Source: a virus. Taken from it: 64,000 nt of DNA. The notes beneath the pieces were generated by a model. The model ran no database searches and was not told the origin of the DNA. It saw only the letters and a program-made list of their open reading frames with translations. Where the stretch lies: positions 1 through 64,000 of IMG/VR virus record IMGVR_UViG_3300042991_000201; one strand, given 5' to 3'. Below are positions 4,716 through 17,646 of this stretch, piece after piece. A program made the translations under genes and the position numbers. The first letter of the stretch is position 1. Each line of letters opens with the position of its first letter.

Positions 4716-7046
4716 ATGGAAAACAACAAAGCATTTGTAGCCATATTGAAACACATTACACCAATAGAAGGTGCTGATAAAATCGTGCAAGCCCAAGTGT
4801 ATCTCAATGGTGTACCTATTACTCAAGTTATAGTCGGAGTAAATACCAAGGAAGATACTCCTGTTGTTTACTTTGATAGCAATGTATGTCTATCTGACAG
4901 ACTCGTTACGGACTATCCTGACCTTGCTACCTATCTTGCCAAAGATAATCGTGTGCGATGTATCAAATTACGTGGGGTAGTGTCTAATGGATTGTGCATA
5001 GATATTGTCAAATTTGCAAAGTACACTGCCGTAGAGATGCCTGAAGGTTACGCTTTTGACAAATTAGGGGATGTAGAGATTTGTCACAAGTTCATCCCCC
5101 TGAAGCTGGAGCCTACTGTGAAACATAAGAATCGGGAACGGAAAGCCAAAAAGCCTTCTCGTATCATTCCAGAGATGTTTCACTTTCATATCGATACGGA
5201 ACAGCTTCCAAGGAATATGCACAAACTTCATATTGATGATGTAGTATCTATTAGCAGAAAATACCATGGATGCTTCACGGGTAGAACACTGGTATCTATG
5301 GGAGACGGGACTAAAAAGAGAATAAAGGATATTGTCGTTGGGGATAGTATATTGGGATGCACAGAAGAAGGTGGAGTTGTACTTAGTAAAGTATTGAATA
5401 CTTTTATGAATGGGACTACTGACAAGTGGTATCGTATTAAATATAGAGGGAGAAAAATTCTACATGCCACAGGAACTCATCGCATATATACTCAACGTGG
5501 TTATGTAGAAGTACAAGACCTTACCCCACAGGATAAGATAATATATCCTACAACAGTTCCAATCCTAGATATAGATGCAAAGTCTGTGCTACTAGGTAAA
5601 GCATTGGGAGACGGATGCCTTCAGTCAAACGCAGACTCTTTAATGCTTCAGGTATCTCATAAAAATGACCATGAGCAATATTTAGATTATTGCATCTCTC
5701 TTCTACATCCTATTGACTGTGGTAGTAGTAAGACACACAAGACTTCCGGGTATGGCACAGATATGATTCGCTGGCATAGCTCACAAACACACGCAATAAA
5801 CCATACTTTGAAAGCCTATCTGTCAGATAAGAAGTTTAAGATAACTGAGGCACTTGTTAATGATTTAACCCCGCTCGCTTTAGCTATTTGGTACATGGAC
5901 GATGGTAGTTTAATACATTCCGAGTTACAACAGGATCGTGCTGGGCTTGCTATTTGCTCTTTTGGCCCAGAAGTATATCCCATCATAGGCAGAGCTTTAG
6001 CTCAGTATGGTATAGAAAATGTGACTTTCTATACTTCGCATAATAAGGGCAATCCCAAAGCACATTCCCGTATTCGATTTAATTTGGATGCCGCTTGTAA
6101 GCTATTTGAGTTAATAAAGGAGTATATACCTCCATGTATGCAATACAAACTTCCAGTAGAGTACAGAGGATACTATAAGTCTCCTACTATACGTACATCT
6201 ATAGAATATGAGCAAATACTGGTTCCTTATTCTGTTGTTTCTGTAGAACAGGTAATTGCAGATGGATACACGGGGAATGGTAAGTATGACATAGAGACTG
6301 AGACTCACAACTATATTGCAAATGGAATTGTAGTGCATAACTGTTCTGCCATTACTAGCCATACGCAGGTCAAGAAATCTCTATCTATATTTGAAAAAGT
6401 TTTGAAGGTTTTCAAGTTTCCCGTGGGGGATAGGGAATGGACATACTTGTATGCAAGTCGTAGCGTAGTGAAAAATGACGCTGTATCTACAGGATTTTAC
6501 AAGTATGATTTATGGACGGAGACAGGTAAGAAGTATTTTGATGGTAAACTGCATAAGGGCGAGACAGTATACTATGAAATTATTGGATATATCCCCGGTA
6601 CCAAGAGTTTTATCCAGAAGAACTACGATTATGCTAACCTTCCCGGAGATTGTTCCATTGTTGTGTATCGTATCACTTCCACTAATACTGACGGGGTAGT
6701 GTATGAATATTCTTGGGCGGCTATAAAAGACCGCTGTAAAGAGTTGGGTGTTCATATGGTACAAGAATATTATTACGGAACTATTCGTTCTCTACTCTTT
6801 GGATATTCTATAAGACCGAATCCAGAGTGGAATGCTGATCTACTTGCCCTACTTCAAAAGCGATACCTTGAACGAGATTGCCCCGACAATCTTTGCAAGA
6901 AGATGCCTGATGAAGGTATTGTACTTAGGGTAGAGGCAAAAGACATTCAGGTATACAAGTATAAGAGTGAAAAATTTTTGACTCAGGAATCTAAAGCCAA
7001 GGAAGATGAAGTTCCAGATATTGAAGAACAGGAAGGAGTACTCTAA
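4716..7046 (+). CDS. ATP-dependent RNA ligase (DRB0094/Rnl5-like) containing an intein
   Basis: N-terminal PIEGADKI domain; motif I KYHG|CS, YYEIIG, EGIVLR, YKYKSEKFL. Confidence 0.85.
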   Translation: MENNKAFVAILKHITPIEGADKIVQAQVYLNGVPITQVIVGVNTKEDTPVVYFDSNVCLSDRLVTDYPDLATYLAKDNRVRCIKLRGVVSNGLCIDIVKFAKYTAVEMPEGYAFDKLGDVEICHKFIPLKLEPTVKHKNRERKAKKPSRIIPEMFHFHIDTEQLPRNMHKLHIDDVVSISRKYHGCFTGRTLVSMGDGTKKRIKDIVVGDSILGCTEEGGVVLSKVLNTFMNGTTDKWYRIKYRGRKILHATGTHRIYTQRGYVEVQDLTPQDKIIYPTTVPILDIDAKSVLLGKALGDGCLQSNADSLMLQVSHKNDHEQYLDYCISLLHPIDCGSSKTHKTSGYGTDMIRWHSSQTHAINHTLKAYLSDKKFKITEALVNDLTPLALAIWYMDDGSLIHSELQQDRAGLAICSFGPEVYPIIGRALAQYGIENVTFYTSHNKGNPKAHSRIRFNLDAACKLFELIKEYIPPCMQYKLPVEYRGYYKSPTIRTSIEYEQILVPYSVVSVEQVIADGYTGNGKYDIETETHNYIANGIVVHNCSAITSHTQVKKSLSIFEKVLKVFKFPVGDREWTYLYASRSVVKNDAVSTGFYKYDLWTETGKKYFDGKLHKGETVYYEIIGYIPGTKSFIQKNYDYANLPGDCSIVVYRITSTNTDGVVYEYSWAAIKDRCKELGVHMVQEYYYGTIRSLLFGYSIRPNPEWNADLLALLQKRYLERDCPDNLCKKMPDEGIVLRVEAKDIQVYKYKSEKFLTQESKAKEDEVPDIEEQEGVL
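5271..6341 (+). mobile_element. intein (357 aa) with LAGLIDADG homing endonuclease
   Basis: Starts CFTGRTLV, block B ATGTHRIY, LLGKALGDG and LAIWYMDDGS, ends YDIETETHNYIANGIVVHN followed by Cys. Confidence 0.93.
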
Positions 7047-8162: not shown

Positions 8163-8705
8163 TTAGAATACAACAAGAGCAAGTATCATGCCCAGAGTTA
8201 TGACCCCCGTCAGTGACGTAACTTTCACAGTATAATCCTGATCTGGTTCCAACTCTATAAATCCACCAACTTCAGCAGAAGCTGCTGCCTTGTAGGCTCC
8301 TTGCACCACCCCTGCCAAATATCTTGATGGGGCTGCAATGCCTCCAATGATAGTGGTAAGGGGTACTACGTTTGATACCCCAACTTTCAAATCTGTGAGG
8401 CCACTCGCTTGATTTTTGAAGCGTCTATTGGTATTCCACTCGGTAGTGGGGGTGCCTCCTGTATATGTTCCACCTTCAATGAGAGTTATGTTTCCATCTT
8501 CTCCTACCCTATCCAGCGTTGTATATGTATAGTATACTCCATGAGGGGAAGCGGGGGTATGAAAATGTAATGTAGAATATATTCCTGCCGCAGATAAAAC
8601 ATGCTTATTGAATCCTATTCGGTAGATTCTACCATTCATAACCTCCAATTCGTCTAAGCGGATATTGTTGATACGAGTAAATACACTATTGATAACAGGA
8701 TTCAT
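8163..8705 (-). CDS. hypothetical beta-rich protein, possibly virion-associated
   Basis: G/T-rich ORF at the end of the late operon. Confidence 0.6.
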   Translation of the reverse strand: MNPVINSVFTRINNIRLDELEVMNGRIYRIGFNKHVLSAAGIYSTLHFHTPASPHGVYYTYTTLDRVGEDGNITLIEGGTYTGGTPTTEWNTNRRFKNQASGLTDLKVGVSNVVPLTTIIGGIAAPSRYLAGVVQGAYKAAASAEVGGFIELEPDQDYTVKVTSLTGVITLGMILALVVF

Positions 8706-8717
8706 ACCACACCCCCT

Positions 8718-9056
8718 TTAGGAAGCATATAAAGTCTTTACCGTTACTCCAATGGTTACATCTCCTGTTAGTCTCTTGCATTTGAAAGCTGTGACACCGG
8801 GATTAACTTCTGCTATACCATCCCAAGAATACCACACAGCATTCTCGGTTTCTATATCTGTATAAGAAGAGGCAGTGAAATCCAATTTACCATCACCCAC
8901 CATAAACATTACAATATTGCCAATAGGCTGTAGGGGTAATAGATATGGGGTGGTGTAGTCTGTTCCAGACGTAGCAACAAATTTAGTGTGGAATACCCCA
9001 CCACTGTCTGTGTCATCTCGCGCAATCAGTTCCATTTGTAAAGGGGTTACTGCCAT
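8718..9056 (-). CDS. hypothetical protein, possibly virion-associated
   Basis: AAGGAGG SD. Confidence 0.65.
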   Translation of the reverse strand: MAVTPLQMELIARDDTDSGGVFHTKFVATSGTDYTTPYLLPLQPIGNIVMFMVGDGKLDFTASSYTDIETENAVWYSWDGIAEVNPGVTAFKCKRLTGDVTIGVTVKTLYAS

Positions 9057-9200: not shown

Positions 9201-9647
9201 CTATGCCCCTCCATTCGCTAGTATATATAGGGTCTCTCCAGTAACAATCACTCCAAGAACAAGCACAGTGATTTCATAAACTTTCAACCAGAATGATAAT
9301 CTCTGAAATTCCTTCAATAACGTCGTGTAGCTCTGTTCCTGCTCCCGTAAGGTCTGTTCCGATAGTCCCAAGAGTCGCTTTGATTCGATCAAGTTCTGCT
9401 CTATGAGCGATACTCTCTTTAAGTATATCTGCTCGGAGTCTTGCAACTGTTTTTCCAAGTTCTGTATTGAGGTTTGTAAGTCCATTATTGTATTCTTGGA
9501 GGACTCTATTTGCATCAATACTTGCGTCAAGTTCTCTTGATATTGTGTCAATCGATTTACGATAATTTCTTTGGCCGATTGCCCATGTGACAGCACTGGC
9601 ACAAAGAGAACCAAGTATAAAAGACACAATAATCGCTTTCCACACAT
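9201..9647 (-). CDS. putative second spanin component (signal peptide, coiled coil, C-terminal hydrophobic helix)
   Basis: Overlaps the i-spanin-like ORF in another frame, in the Rz1-like position. Confidence 0.6.
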   Translation of the reverse strand: MCGKRLLCLLYLVLFVPVLSHGQSAKEIIVNRLTQYQENLTQVLMQIESSKNTIMDLQTSIQNLEKQLQDSEQIYLKRVSLIEQNLIESKRLLGLSEQTLREQEQSYTTLLKEFQRLSFWLKVYEITVLVLGVIVTGETLYILANGGA

Positions 9648-9666
9648 CGCTACTCTTTTCGGCCAT
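9274..9666 (-). CDS. putative i-spanin (Rz-like)
   Basis: N-terminal TM helix then coiled coil; directly after the holin. Confidence 0.65.
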   Translation of the reverse strand: MAEKSSDVWKAIIVSFILGSLCASAVTWAIGQRNYRKSIDTISRELDASIDANRVLQEYNNGLTNLNTELGKTVARLRADILKESIAHRAELDRIKATLGTIGTDLTGAGTELHDVIEGISEIIILVESL

Positions 9667-9865
9667 TCTTTAGCTCTGATATTTTGTCCATCATAATAGA
9701 CAGATAGATTGGACTAAAAGCACCCGCAATAGTAACGCCAGACAGGATTATATCTGCCATAGGAATTCCATTTTTTGACAAGAAGGCATAGGAAGTCCAT
9801 CCCGCTACCCATAGGGCCATGACAATCTGCCCAAACAGTGAAATTCGTTTTGCTTTATTTGCCAT
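9650..9865 (-). CDS. putative holin (2 TM)
   Basis: MANKAK start after GGAG; two TM helices and a charged C-terminal tail. Confidence 0.65.
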   Translation of the reverse strand: MANKAKRISLFGQIVMALWVAGWTSYAFLSKNGIPMADIILSGVTIAGAFSPIYLSIMMDKISELKNGRKE

Positions 9866-9966: not shown

Positions 9967-10938
9967 TCAATCTTCATAGTGAATATCCTCCCCTAGTGTA
10001 TAGAATGTAGGTTGAAATTTAAGTATTCTTCCATTACGAACAGTCATCTTAATAATCCAAAAGCCTGTATAAGCATCCATACGTCTACCTCTCATAAATC
10101 CTGTTTGTTTCTGTATACACCCCCCTGCAACTACATAGGAACCCTTATACTTAAAAGATATGGCTTTATGGTCATGTGCCGTTATCAATATACTAGGTCG
10201 ATCTGATATAGGTATTGAATCTAAGATTCTCTGTCCTCTATGAGATAATGCCGCACTCGCCCCAGCATCCGTACCATGGAATAATGTTATTTTAATATCA
10301 TTTACTACGATAGACCCATCGTTAGTACCTAGATATCTTAAATTGCCTACAGCATTGCACACCTCTTCTACTATATCAACTCCCATGCCTATTTTAGTAT
10401 TAAAGGATTCATCGTGATTTCCATTTATAACATACATAGGCAGTGGGCATTGTTTGAATATGCGGATAGCCTCATCTCTCTGTGCTTTATACCCAATAGA
10501 TGACAACTCATATACATGAGAGGGTCTATTCATCATACCTTCTACAACGTCACCAGCATGAACTACAAATGAACAGTTCTCAGTTTGAAACTCCCTAAAA
10601 GCTGATAAAATATCTTGAGGGTCAGTATCAATACTACCTATGTGGGTATCTGCTAATACGCCAAATGTAATGGTCTCCCCCGCATACGATACATCCGGGA
10701 CTTGCTTAGTTACAGGAGTTATTCTACTTGAAGATATAATCCCTTTCAACTCACTGTCTGTAAATCTCTTCTTGAGTGCTAGATATATTAAAGCCCCTTC
10801 TCCATAAATCTCTTTGTACTTTCTGCGATACCTTTCCAGTGTAGATATAGGTAATCCATATACTTCTGATGCTCGGGTATCCCCATGAGTCAGTGCATAG
10901 TCTATTACTTCAGTTACTCTTTCTTTACCAACTGGCAT
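9967..10938 (-). CDS. calcineurin-like metallophosphoesterase with N-terminal HTH
   Basis: ADTH, AGDVVEG, GNHD, FHG, AHDH. Confidence 0.85.
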   Translation of the reverse strand: MPVGKERVTEVIDYALTHGDTRASEVYGLPISTLERYRRKYKEIYGEGALIYLALKKRFTDSELKGIISSSRITPVTKQVPDVSYAGETITFGVLADTHIGSIDTDPQDILSAFREFQTENCSFVVHAGDVVEGMMNRPSHVYELSSIGYKAQRDEAIRIFKQCPLPMYVINGNHDESFNTKIGMGVDIVEEVCNAVGNLRYLGTNDGSIVVNDIKITLFHGTDAGASAALSHRGQRILDSIPISDRPSILITAHDHKAISFKYKGSYVVAGGCIQKQTGFMRGRRMDAYTGFWIIKMTVRNGRILKFQPTFYTLGEDIHYED

Positions 10939-11525: not shown

Positions 11526-11930
11526 CTATACTTTCCAGAATATTCTTTTAGAGACTAACCGTCCCGTTCTAACCGTCTTTGAATCCCCGTAAGGATCATA
11601 CTCTACTTTACCAGTACCATCTCCACATACAAAATGCCCTATTGTAGACCGCCCTTCTGTATATTCAAAACGAAGAATCTCATATTCATCTTTTTTGGTG
11701 ATATATGTATTAAGTCCTTTTGCCATTGCCCACTTTGTACCTGTCATCATCTCCATGAGTTTGACTGGCTCTTTCACGTAGCAATCAGCCTCTATATACC
11801 CCAATTCAAGTGCTTGCCTATATACGTCGAGAGCATCTACATTCTTACGTGTCACCTTCTCTGCAAGATATACAAGACTGAATATATAGCAACCGTCCTT
11901 GCCCATTATTTCTGCTATTTTCTGATACAT
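11526..11930 (-). CDS. DUF261-like papain-fold cysteine peptidase, candidate endolysin
   Basis: GCYIFSL (Cys), GHFV (His), YDP (Asp). Confidence 0.6.
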   Translation of the reverse strand: MYQKIAEIMGKDGCYIFSLVYLAEKVTRKNVDALDVYRQALELGYIEADCYVKEPVKLMEMMTGTKWAMAKGLNTYITKKDEYEILRFEYTEGRSTIGHFVCGDGTGKVEYDPYGDSKTVRTGRLVSKRIFWKV

Positions 11931-12661
11931 GAGTCCTCCTTACCGAGTGTATACTTTATATATGCGCTATAGTCTTTTTCCATGGCATCTAAATCTGCAT
12001 ATGTAGTACGTGCCAGCTTGAAGGCTCTGTTGAAGATGGTATTAACAGATTCTTCTAATATTGGCATATTCTCTTTGTGGATGGCATATAATTCTGGACG
12101 GGTCACGAGCCTTCCTCTCCAATACACGTTTAGTCCTTCAGTCACTTTCTGCATTACTACGCCACATTTCTTGTCTATGTATGCAATCTGTTCTTCCATA
12201 GATAACTCTGCATAGTGATTTGCTTTGAACGCGGTACGCACATACGATTTTATCTCCACAGCAATAGCCATAAGGGTAACTGTATATGCAGTATATTCTG
12301 GATGCTGAACGTATGAATCCACACCCTCTAATTTTTTACTAAGGATAGACAGGAAAAGATATTTCATAGTACCCTGTATCTCTTCTGCTGTCTCTTCGTA
12401 GAATCTCATCTGCTCTTCAAGAAGGATGTTTTTTCGCTCTTGTCGAGATTCAATATACTCTGTGGTACGGTATATCAGCTCCACGATATCTCCAGCGTAG
12501 GGGCATTTTGCGTGTGGTGAAACTTTTGGTAATGAAGATTTGCCTATAAGGATACCGGCCTTTGACAAAGACAGATATCCAACACGCCATATGATAACAA
12601 TAAGCGCCATAGATATGACCGAGATAGAAGCGAAACCCCAAGGGGTAGCAAGCATTTCCAT
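11915..12661 (-). CDS. N-terminally membrane-anchored helical protein
   Basis: TM helix at about residues 10-27; overlaps the peptidase gene. Confidence 0.7.
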   Translation of the reverse strand: MEMLATPWGFASISVISMALIVIIWRVGYLSLSKAGILIGKSSLPKVSPHAKCPYAGDIVELIYRTTEYIESRQERKNILLEEQMRFYEETAEEIQGTMKYLFLSILSKKLEGVDSYVQHPEYTAYTVTLMAIAVEIKSYVRTAFKANHYAELSMEEQIAYIDKKCGVVMQKVTEGLNVYWRGRLVTRPELYAIHKENMPILEESVNTIFNRAFKLARTTYADLDAMEKDYSAYIKYTLGKEDSCIRK

Positions 12662-16893: not shown

Positions 16894-17646
16894 CTAGAGT
16901 ATTATAAATGTAAATACAATAAGAGATAGTACAATAGCAATGCCAAGATATATTCGTTTGAATATCTTGACAGCTATGGGATATAAATAATTGTTCTCTG
17001 CTGATTCAACTCTCGCATTGTCTAGGAACCCTCTATATGCTTCAGTATCATGGGCATACACAAGAGAAGACATTGGCAATAGAGAAGTCTTACCCTTCTT
17101 TATTGCTGGAACTATATGTGTATACAGCATCCAGACTGGCGCCAATTTTGGCACTATATCGTTTCCATTAACAAGACGCACAATGCCAGCACACCGTTGT
17201 TTAACTAACCTAGAACCAAGCAAGCCAAATACTCTTGGAGAACCTGTAACAAGACACGATACTGGAACGGTGACTGTACCTATCTCTTTCAGATACGCCA
17301 TATCCTCATAACACAGAGTTGCTATAGCGGCTCCGAGAGAATGGCCTGAGATATGAATTGAATCAAACTCTGATTTACGAGTAGATACAAACAAAAGAAT
17401 ATCATCTCGACAAATTTTATATATTTTCAGAAATCCAGCATGGACGAAGAATGTGCGTTTCATCTGTTTATATGGCTTTTTCCAGAACATAAAATTGTGA
17501 ATCCAGTCTTTCGCAGACACAGAACCTAGGAACCCTATATAGAGAGTACGGTCTTTAATCCCTATAGACAATTCCACATCTTTAGAAGGGTCTATTGTCT
17601 TGTAGGGGAAAGTGGGATTAAAGCATAAATCAATTTCTTTTTGCAT
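16894..17646 (-). CDS. class 3 lipase (alpha/beta hydrolase) with C-terminal TM anchor
   Basis: FLGS, VHAGF, GHSLGAA, GSPRV, DIVP, C-terminal His. Confidence 0.9.
   Translation of the reverse strand: MQKEIDLCFNPTFPYKTIDPSKDVELSIGIKDRTLYIGFLGSVSAKDWIHNFMFWKKPYKQMKRTFFVHAGFLKIYKICRDDILLFVSTRKSEFDSIHISGHSLGAAIATLCYEDMAYLKEIGTVTVPVSCLVTGSPRVFGLLGSRLVKQRCAGIVRLVNGNDIVPKLAPVWMLYTHIVPAIKKGKTSLLPMSSLVYAHDTEAYRGFLDNARVESAENNYLYPIAVKIFKRIYLGIAIVLSLIVFTFIIL

Follow-up and report, generated by a model that had tools for sequence, protein, structure and literature searches.

One and the same stretch of DNA in the lysis region of a tailed phage (73.7 kb) very probably encodes two proteins. The two genes, which we call A and B, lie on one strand behind a holin-like gene and overlap in different reading frames, and each is predicted to place a long coiled-coil rod outside the cytoplasm and to be anchored in the cytoplasmic membrane. 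It is possible, with a likelihood that we put a little below even, that this dual-coding pair, with both rods standing on the cytoplasmic membrane, is the equivalent of a spanin system that works without a lipoprotein. Such a function is proposed by analogy, from gene position and architecture. More tentatively, the pair may represent a new class of envelope-disruption system, in which two rods, translated in two frames from twin starts, anchored in the cytoplasmic membrane and paired in an antiparallel fashion, would break through the outer membrane of a host that is probably a spirochaete, or fuse this membrane, with no lipoprotein involved.

The window, by which we mean the whole stretch of DNA that was analysed, comprises 64 kb from the beginning of an IMG/VR virus record of 73.7 kb. 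The late genes of the record (portal, capsid, tape measure) are on the minus strand, as are the features considered here:

9650-9865, minus strand: holin-like gene, 71 aa, two transmembrane (TM) segments, charged C-terminal tail
9274-9666, minus strand: gene A, 130 aa, predicted N-terminal TM segment at about residues 9-31, coiled coil of about 99 aa
9201-9647, minus strand: gene B, 148 aa, predicted signal peptide, long helix, predicted C-terminal TM segment at about residues 121-143
9274-9647, minus strand: dual-coding zone of A and B, 374 nt, two reading frames
9643-9658, minus strand: putative shared translation-start region with the Shine-Dalgarno (SD)-like AAAGAG, the ATG of B and the A-frame GTG
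11526-11930, minus strand: DUF261 protein, candidate endolysin, 134 aa; context, outside the pair

Two reading frames in one stretch of DNA

The holin-like gene, which has a GAGGAG SD sequence 7 nt upstream of its ATG at 9865, is located directly upstream of the A/B pair. The frame of B is +1 relative to that of A, and the overlap spans 95% of gene A. An initial annotation of this DNA had described two same-strand open reading frames (ORFs) after the holin that overlap for 374 nt in different frames and both encode coiled coils, and the coordinates as well as the heptad scores given below agree with this description. An SD-like AAAGAG (9658-9653) is followed after 5 nt by the ATG of B (9647-9645). 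The upstream ATG of A (9666) overlaps the end of the holin-like gene, and an alternative start for A is provided by a GTG in the A frame (9645-9643), two bases past the start of the B ATG. The TAG stop codon of the holin-like gene (9652-9650) falls between the SD-like sequence and the ATG of B, 2 nt before the latter, and translational coupling of B to the holin-like gene is plausible.

Conservation of the overlap at the DNA level comes from a single distant locus, on a metagenome phage contig from JGI (L003). Here, the counterpart of B (B', protein P0012, 6001-6456) is about 30% identical to B, and a 126-aa ORF (A', 5997-6377) is 27% identical to A (E 6e-5) and overlaps B' in the same frame relation and to the same extent as in the window. 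A' has an N-terminal TM segment, a heptad z of 5.5 and a C-terminal motif like that of A. In the window as in L003, the genes thus overlap on one strand, in different frames and within a lysis cassette. The starts are also disposed alike, with GAGGAG preceding the ATG codons of A' (5997) and B' (6001) in L003, and they are 2-4 nt apart behind one SD in both loci when the A-frame GTG is taken for the window. Moreover, 18 of the 22 N-termini of the B family begin with [M/V][C/W], that is (A/G)TG-TG in nucleotides, and the best explanation for this enrichment of Cys and Trp at position 2 would be that a GTG start of the other frame overlaps here. If this use of GTG and of twin starts is right, one ribosome-binding site would feed both frames and fix their ratio.

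The open second frame is not explained by chance. One frame was synonymously resampled with the phage's own codon usage, in 20,000 trials per direction. The B frame was open across the window overlap in 0 of 20,000 resamplings of A and the A frame in 0 of 20,000 resamplings of B, and by codon permutation a second frame is open in the window at 1.5e-4. In L003, whichever of the two proteins is given, the other frame would be open by chance at <= 5e-5 (at most 1 of 20,000 resamplings). To judge from the alignments, both frames are under selection, since an unselected frame at about 30% identity would fill with stops. Conservation of the two frames had been named in the initial annotation as the check to make, and both are kept in L003 at about 30% identity, which supports that both are real coding sequence. 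The pair is an unusually long same-strand dual-coding region whose frames both survive such divergence, and it offers a natural case for how two structured proteins share codons. Gene callers pick one frame per contig, A in the window and on the contig of the A homolog P0002 and B elsewhere. Annotation calls one of the two genes, and the pair is therefore systematically missed.

The two products and their relatives

In the A protein, a hydrophobic stretch (about residues 9-31) precedes 99 heptad-rich residues (heptad z = 4.8 versus shuffles) and a conserved, hydrophobic C-terminal end. The sole Cys of A (C22) resides within the TM segment, and a periplasmic Cys for disulfide bonds is absent. 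From its sequence, A thus has the type II N-terminal TM segment and the periplasmic coiled coil of an i-spanin, in line with the earlier view of A as an Rz-like protein with an N-terminal TM segment. A was called as protein P0001 and has two known relatives, the 82% identical homolog P0002, from an ENA contig, and the ORF in L003. A profile of the three A sequences returned no additional called proteins, and no relatives of A were found in viral, metagenome and genome contigs. A match to one contig (L002), 17 residues long, was discarded as spurious.

In P0002, the stop codon of A is lost and the protein reads on for 20 residues across the stretch that encodes the TM helix of B, indicating that the C-terminus of A tolerates extension. 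In these 20 extra codons, the A frame is scrambled relative to the window and bears little resemblance to the window's A-frame reading. When P0002 is back-translated, the forced changes in the B-frame TM helix are I/V/L exchanges and synonymous changes alone. Taken from the protein alone, codon 105 of B would be a stop in this relative if its Val codon is GTA or GTG. At the P0002 locus, the overlap would cover nearly all of B.

The B protein begins with MCGKR and a hydrophobic stretch that ends in VLSHG-QSAKE, with no Cys after the stretch. About 100 heptad-rich residues follow (ectodomain heptad z = 3.0 versus shuffles), mature B has no Cys, and the protein ends in a predicted C-terminal TM segment, the cytoplasmic membrane anchor expected of a u-spanin. 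The initial annotation had likewise read a signal peptide ending in VLSHG-Q without a following Cys, together with a C-terminal hydrophobic helix. In the AlphaFold2 (AF2) model of B (pLDDT 89), a signal helix (residues 4-20) and a break (21-24) precede one uninterrupted helix (25-146), and the predicted ectodomain is all helical, not rich in beta-strands as that of a u-spanin.

A full HMMER search of 1.84 billion representatives returned 24 representative homologs of B (E 4.6e-24 to 7e-4; 110-168 aa) that align end to end, and by these alignments B belongs to a real protein family. B itself is absent from the word-indexed protein collection because gene callers chose A on this contig. Throughout the family, a signal peptide leads to a putative processing site of the signal-peptidase-I type, with small residues at -3/-1 and then QS.K[D/E].I[I/V]..L..YQ, and then to leucine heptads, in which a hinge that tolerates indels comes after an invariant Ser. 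Every full-length member has a hydrophobic segment near its C-terminus, in most cases with K, R or W behind it. In about half of the members, the signal contains no Cys past position 2, and a lipobox-like Cys is seen in 3-5 members (for example, P0026 with LLAC-S, P0006 with VAVC-T and P0010 with LFAC-L). Lipidation through a lipobox Cys therefore does not appear to be a feature of the family, and B itself has neither the lipobox of an o-spanin nor the lipoprotein signal of a u-spanin. The initial annotation had also claimed that the pair lacks a lipoprotein, and this claim is borne out: the signal of B has no lipobox, and when the window was scanned for lipoboxes in all six frames, no credible lipoprotein ORF came up near the cassette.

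The B family corresponds to no family in Pfam, NCBIfam or PHROGs. Its members match 18 PHROG families with 1-2 members each, scattered matches that look like coiled-coil noise, and 1 of 25 members matches the 'Rz-like spanin' phrog_739 at 6e-5. For A and B, no Rz-type family was found in Pfam, PHROG or NCBIfam and no match to Pfam XhlA (PF10779), in each case at E <= 0.01. The B-family members P0012, P0035 and P0014 have no relatives in the viral or genome contigs searched, blastn and tblastn searches of GenBank phages with the region, A, B and P0014 returned nothing, and neither did a search of plasmids with B.

Neighbourhood and host

The A/B pair sits in a lysis-type neighbourhood, at the place where spanin genes normally sit. 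The holin-like protein belongs to no Pfam, PHROG or NCBIfam family, including any holin family. It is homologous (E 3e-14) to a 102-aa protein with two TM segments that is encoded directly after the DUF261 gene in L007, an unrelated GC-rich phage contig. In another contig (L008), DUF261 is followed by another protein with two TM segments. In L003, DUF261 is followed by a multi-TM holin-like gene, and then come a 113-aa gene and A'/B', after which the operon ends and the strand switches.

The DUF261 gene of the window (11526-11930; Pfam DUF261, E 1.9e-16) encodes a protein that is 32% identical to that of L003. Its AF2 model (pLDDT 89.6) resembles prostaphopain B (Z 8.7, 120 residues aligned), a C39 peptidase domain (Z 8.6) and the pseudomurein endoisopeptidase PeiR (Z 7.7), and Foldseek relates it to staphopain with a probability of 0.99. 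Cys14, His99 and Asp104/Asp112 are invariant in 5 sequences. From predicted structure and alignment, DUF261 thus appears to combine a papain-like fold with a Cys-His(-Asp) triad. A PDB profile search with DUF261 and an alignment search of viral contigs returned nothing. By Pfam, none of 38 ORFs of the window and record contains a recognised endolysin or muralytic domain, and since no other muralytic domain was found in the record, the modelled DUF261 protein is a candidate endolysin. DUF261 may more generally be an unrecognised endolysin family, which would bear on phage-derived Borrelia plasmids such as lp54.

Several further observations concern this region. DUF261 adjoins holin-like genes in four unrelated phage contigs, and outside the window it is encoded at 4813-5238 in L003, 1590-2024 in L007, 6705-7100 in L008 and 3986-4417 in L009. 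In four contigs, the gene directly upstream of DUF261 encodes one N-terminal TM segment and then a helical or coiled-coil domain:

11915-12661, minus strand, in the window: gene upstream of DUF261
4427-4816 in L003: gene upstream of DUF261
2021-2314 in L007: gene upstream of DUF261
7103-7624 in L008: gene upstream of DUF261

Judging from these predicted features, its product would be a second conserved membrane component of the lysis module. Between DUF261 and the holin-like gene, the window carries a gene for a 323-aa calcineurin-like metallophosphoesterase (9967-10938, minus strand; PHROG 'DNA repair exonuclease'), an odd enzyme for this place, whose relatives were not found in viral contigs. 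Two genes of the minus strand follow the A/B pair and close the late operon, one for 180 aa (8163-8705) and one for 112 aa (8718-9056). The larger of the two products, 180 aa long, is hydrophobic at its C-terminal end and weakly matches PHROG 5335. Farther away, between the tape-measure gene and a 1198-aa tail-type gene, a class-3 lipase is encoded (16894-17646, minus strand; Pfam Lipase_3, E 1.8e-21). It could be a virion-borne or lysis-associated enzyme that cleaves lipids of the host outer membrane.

The initial annotation had proposed an atypical, spirochaete-like envelope, and the data provide weak hints of a spirochaete host. Within PLSDB, DUF261 occurs only on Borrelia and Borreliella plasmids (including lp54), and language-model look-alikes of B fall into clusters with few labelled members, mostly Spirochaetota. 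The portal protein is about 30% identical to those of phages of many hosts and gives no host clue, and a search for tRNAs found none. For a monoderm host, a spanin role would be meaningless, and the mechanism considered below presupposes a diderm, possibly a spirochaete.

Proposed mechanism, rival explanations and known systems

How could two rods on the same membrane act on another one? In the scenario that we favour, one stretch of mRNA would be translated in two frames, from start codons a few bases apart and from one ribosome-binding site. A would be a type-II membrane protein, N-in/C-out like Rz, with its coiled coil of about 99 residues outside the cytoplasm. B would be exported and lose its signal to signal peptidase I. 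What remains would be a helix of about 100 residues on the outer side of the membrane, which stays anchored by the C-terminal TM segment, and a short tail in the cytoplasm. The rods of A and B, with a length of about 15 nm each, would rise from the cytoplasmic membrane and, since both stand on it, would pair side by side and antiparallel in chain direction. Their distal tip would then bring together the conserved hydrophobic C-terminus of A and the conserved mature N-terminus of B. After holin and endolysin have acted, this tip would engage the outer membrane and destabilise or fuse it, without the need for a lipoprotein anchor. The initial annotation had envisaged a SNARE-like pair of oppositely anchored coiled coils. 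This picture finds no support: both TM anchors are predicted to be in the cytoplasmic membrane, and nothing puts either protein in the outer membrane. A complex prediction with the ectodomains of A and B gave a score of 0.23, the mark being 0.32, which speaks neither for nor against binding.

Could one frame be functional and the other an open but meaningless by-product? Gene callers do take a single frame per contig, A has just two known relatives, and coiled-coil coding is repetitive and tolerant of overprinting. However, resampling left the other frame open in none of the 20,000 trials for the window and in at most one for L003, A' keeps its TM segment, heptads and C-terminal motif at about 30% identity, the B family, with 24 members, has conserved its cleavage site and TM segment, and the tail past the A stop varies as a B-frame TM helix would. 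We consider this explanation quite improbable. Even less credence is due to the idea that a lipoprotein signal was overlooked and that the pair is a two-component or unimolecular spanin of the ordinary kind. In window B, Cys8 comes after only two hydrophobic residues and the stretch continues beyond it; about half of the family lacks a signal Cys beyond position 2, and the signal-peptidase-I-type site is found family-wide. Moreover, the lipobox scan revealed no other lipoprotein ORF in the window, and the B ectodomain is all helical, unlike the beta-rich T1 gp11. What speaks for a missed signal is that the few family members with a lipobox-like Cys would, together with their C-terminal TM segment, have the exact topology of a u-spanin.

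The other rival explanations accept the pair as real and assign it another task. It may regulate or assist the holin-endolysin step, as an antiholin-like protein, an XhlA-like accessory or a periplasmic sensor of the T4 RI type. This appears unlikely to us. In its favour, both anchors are predicted in the very membrane in which the holin acts, the start of B may be coupled to the stop of the holin-like gene, and mature B would consist of a coiled coil and a C-terminal TM segment, like XhlA. Single members of the B family weakly match PHROG 'hemolysin' (XhlA-type) families, but these belong to the scattered matches that resemble coiled-coil noise, and B itself matches neither XhlA nor any antiholin family in Pfam or PHROG. 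Moreover, known antiholins are isoforms of the holin or small proteins and do not consist of two exported rods with about 100 residues each, and in L003 another gene intervenes between the holin-like gene and the pair. It is somewhat less likely still that A and B, encoded at the end of the late operon, have nothing to do with lysis and are envelope proteins that act in superinfection exclusion, in the remodelling of membranes or in virion assembly. No proven endolysin adjoins the pair in the window, the downstream genes (8163-9056) have no assigned function, one of them with a hydrophobic C-terminal end, and PADLOC yielded weak coiled-coil matches only. A reading as a defence system was dropped on account of those PADLOC matches. 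Against a non-lysis role stand the recurrence of the pair together with a DUF261 peptidase and a holin-like gene in two phages that have diverged widely, the plausible translational coupling to the holin-like gene and an architecture that mirrors the spanin gene overlap.

If the pair is indeed a new class of envelope-disruption system, it would provide a mechanism for some 'spanin-less' phages. No spanin was found in 91 of 677 phages of Gram-negative hosts, and the question of another route across the outer membrane has been raised (Kongari et al., 2018; PMC6139136). By copying the spanin gene overlap and swapping the lipoprotein for a second membrane-anchored coiled coil, the pair would represent a testable candidate for such a route. 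Our literature search, which covered spirochaete spanins, spanins that lack a lipobox and dual-coding spanins, yielded no published account of such a pair.

Among known systems, the overlapped or embedded two-component spanins and the u-spanin gp11 of T1 come closest to the pair. With the former, represented by Rz/Rz1 of lambda and LysB/LysC of P2 (PMC6139136), it shares an arrangement in which both lysis-cassette genes are on the same strand and the second is in the +1 frame of the first. It also shares with this type the place after the holin and a first product that is predicted to be a type-II protein with a periplasmic coiled coil. However, the second product of the Rz1 type is a short proline-rich outer-membrane lipoprotein, whereas B is a 148-aa coiled coil with a signal of the signal-peptidase-I type and a C-terminal TM segment. 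The pair further differs in that the overlap takes up 95% of A with the starts a few bases apart behind one SD, in that there is no ectodomain Cys for disulfides, and in that there is no sequence match to Rz families. With the u-spanin gp11 of T1, for which the lipobox variants AWAC and LSGC have been tested (PMC6139136), B has in common an export signal and a C-terminal TM segment, a similar length and a place in the lysis cassette. Yet gp11 needs a lipobox Cys and B has none, the periplasmic domain of gp11 is predicted to be beta-rich whereas that of B is a single long helix in the AF2 model, and B is obligatorily co-encoded with a partner.

As an analogy of layout only, class I viral fusion proteins have the same order of signal peptide, helical heptads and C-terminal TM segment, and the predicted rod of B is likewise of membrane-bridging length, but B lacks a fusion peptide at its mature N-terminus and no hairpin is predicted. 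XhlA from the lysis cassette of the Bacillus prophage PBSX is a small coiled-coil protein with a C-terminal TM segment, encoded next to the holin. It has no signal peptide, such that its coil is cytoplasmic, its host is a monoderm, and it has no overlapping partner. B shares with XhlA the coiled coil and the C-terminal TM segment near a holin, and differs from it by the N-terminal signal. The A/B pair thus resembles a spanin system in its layout and stands outside the known spanin families.
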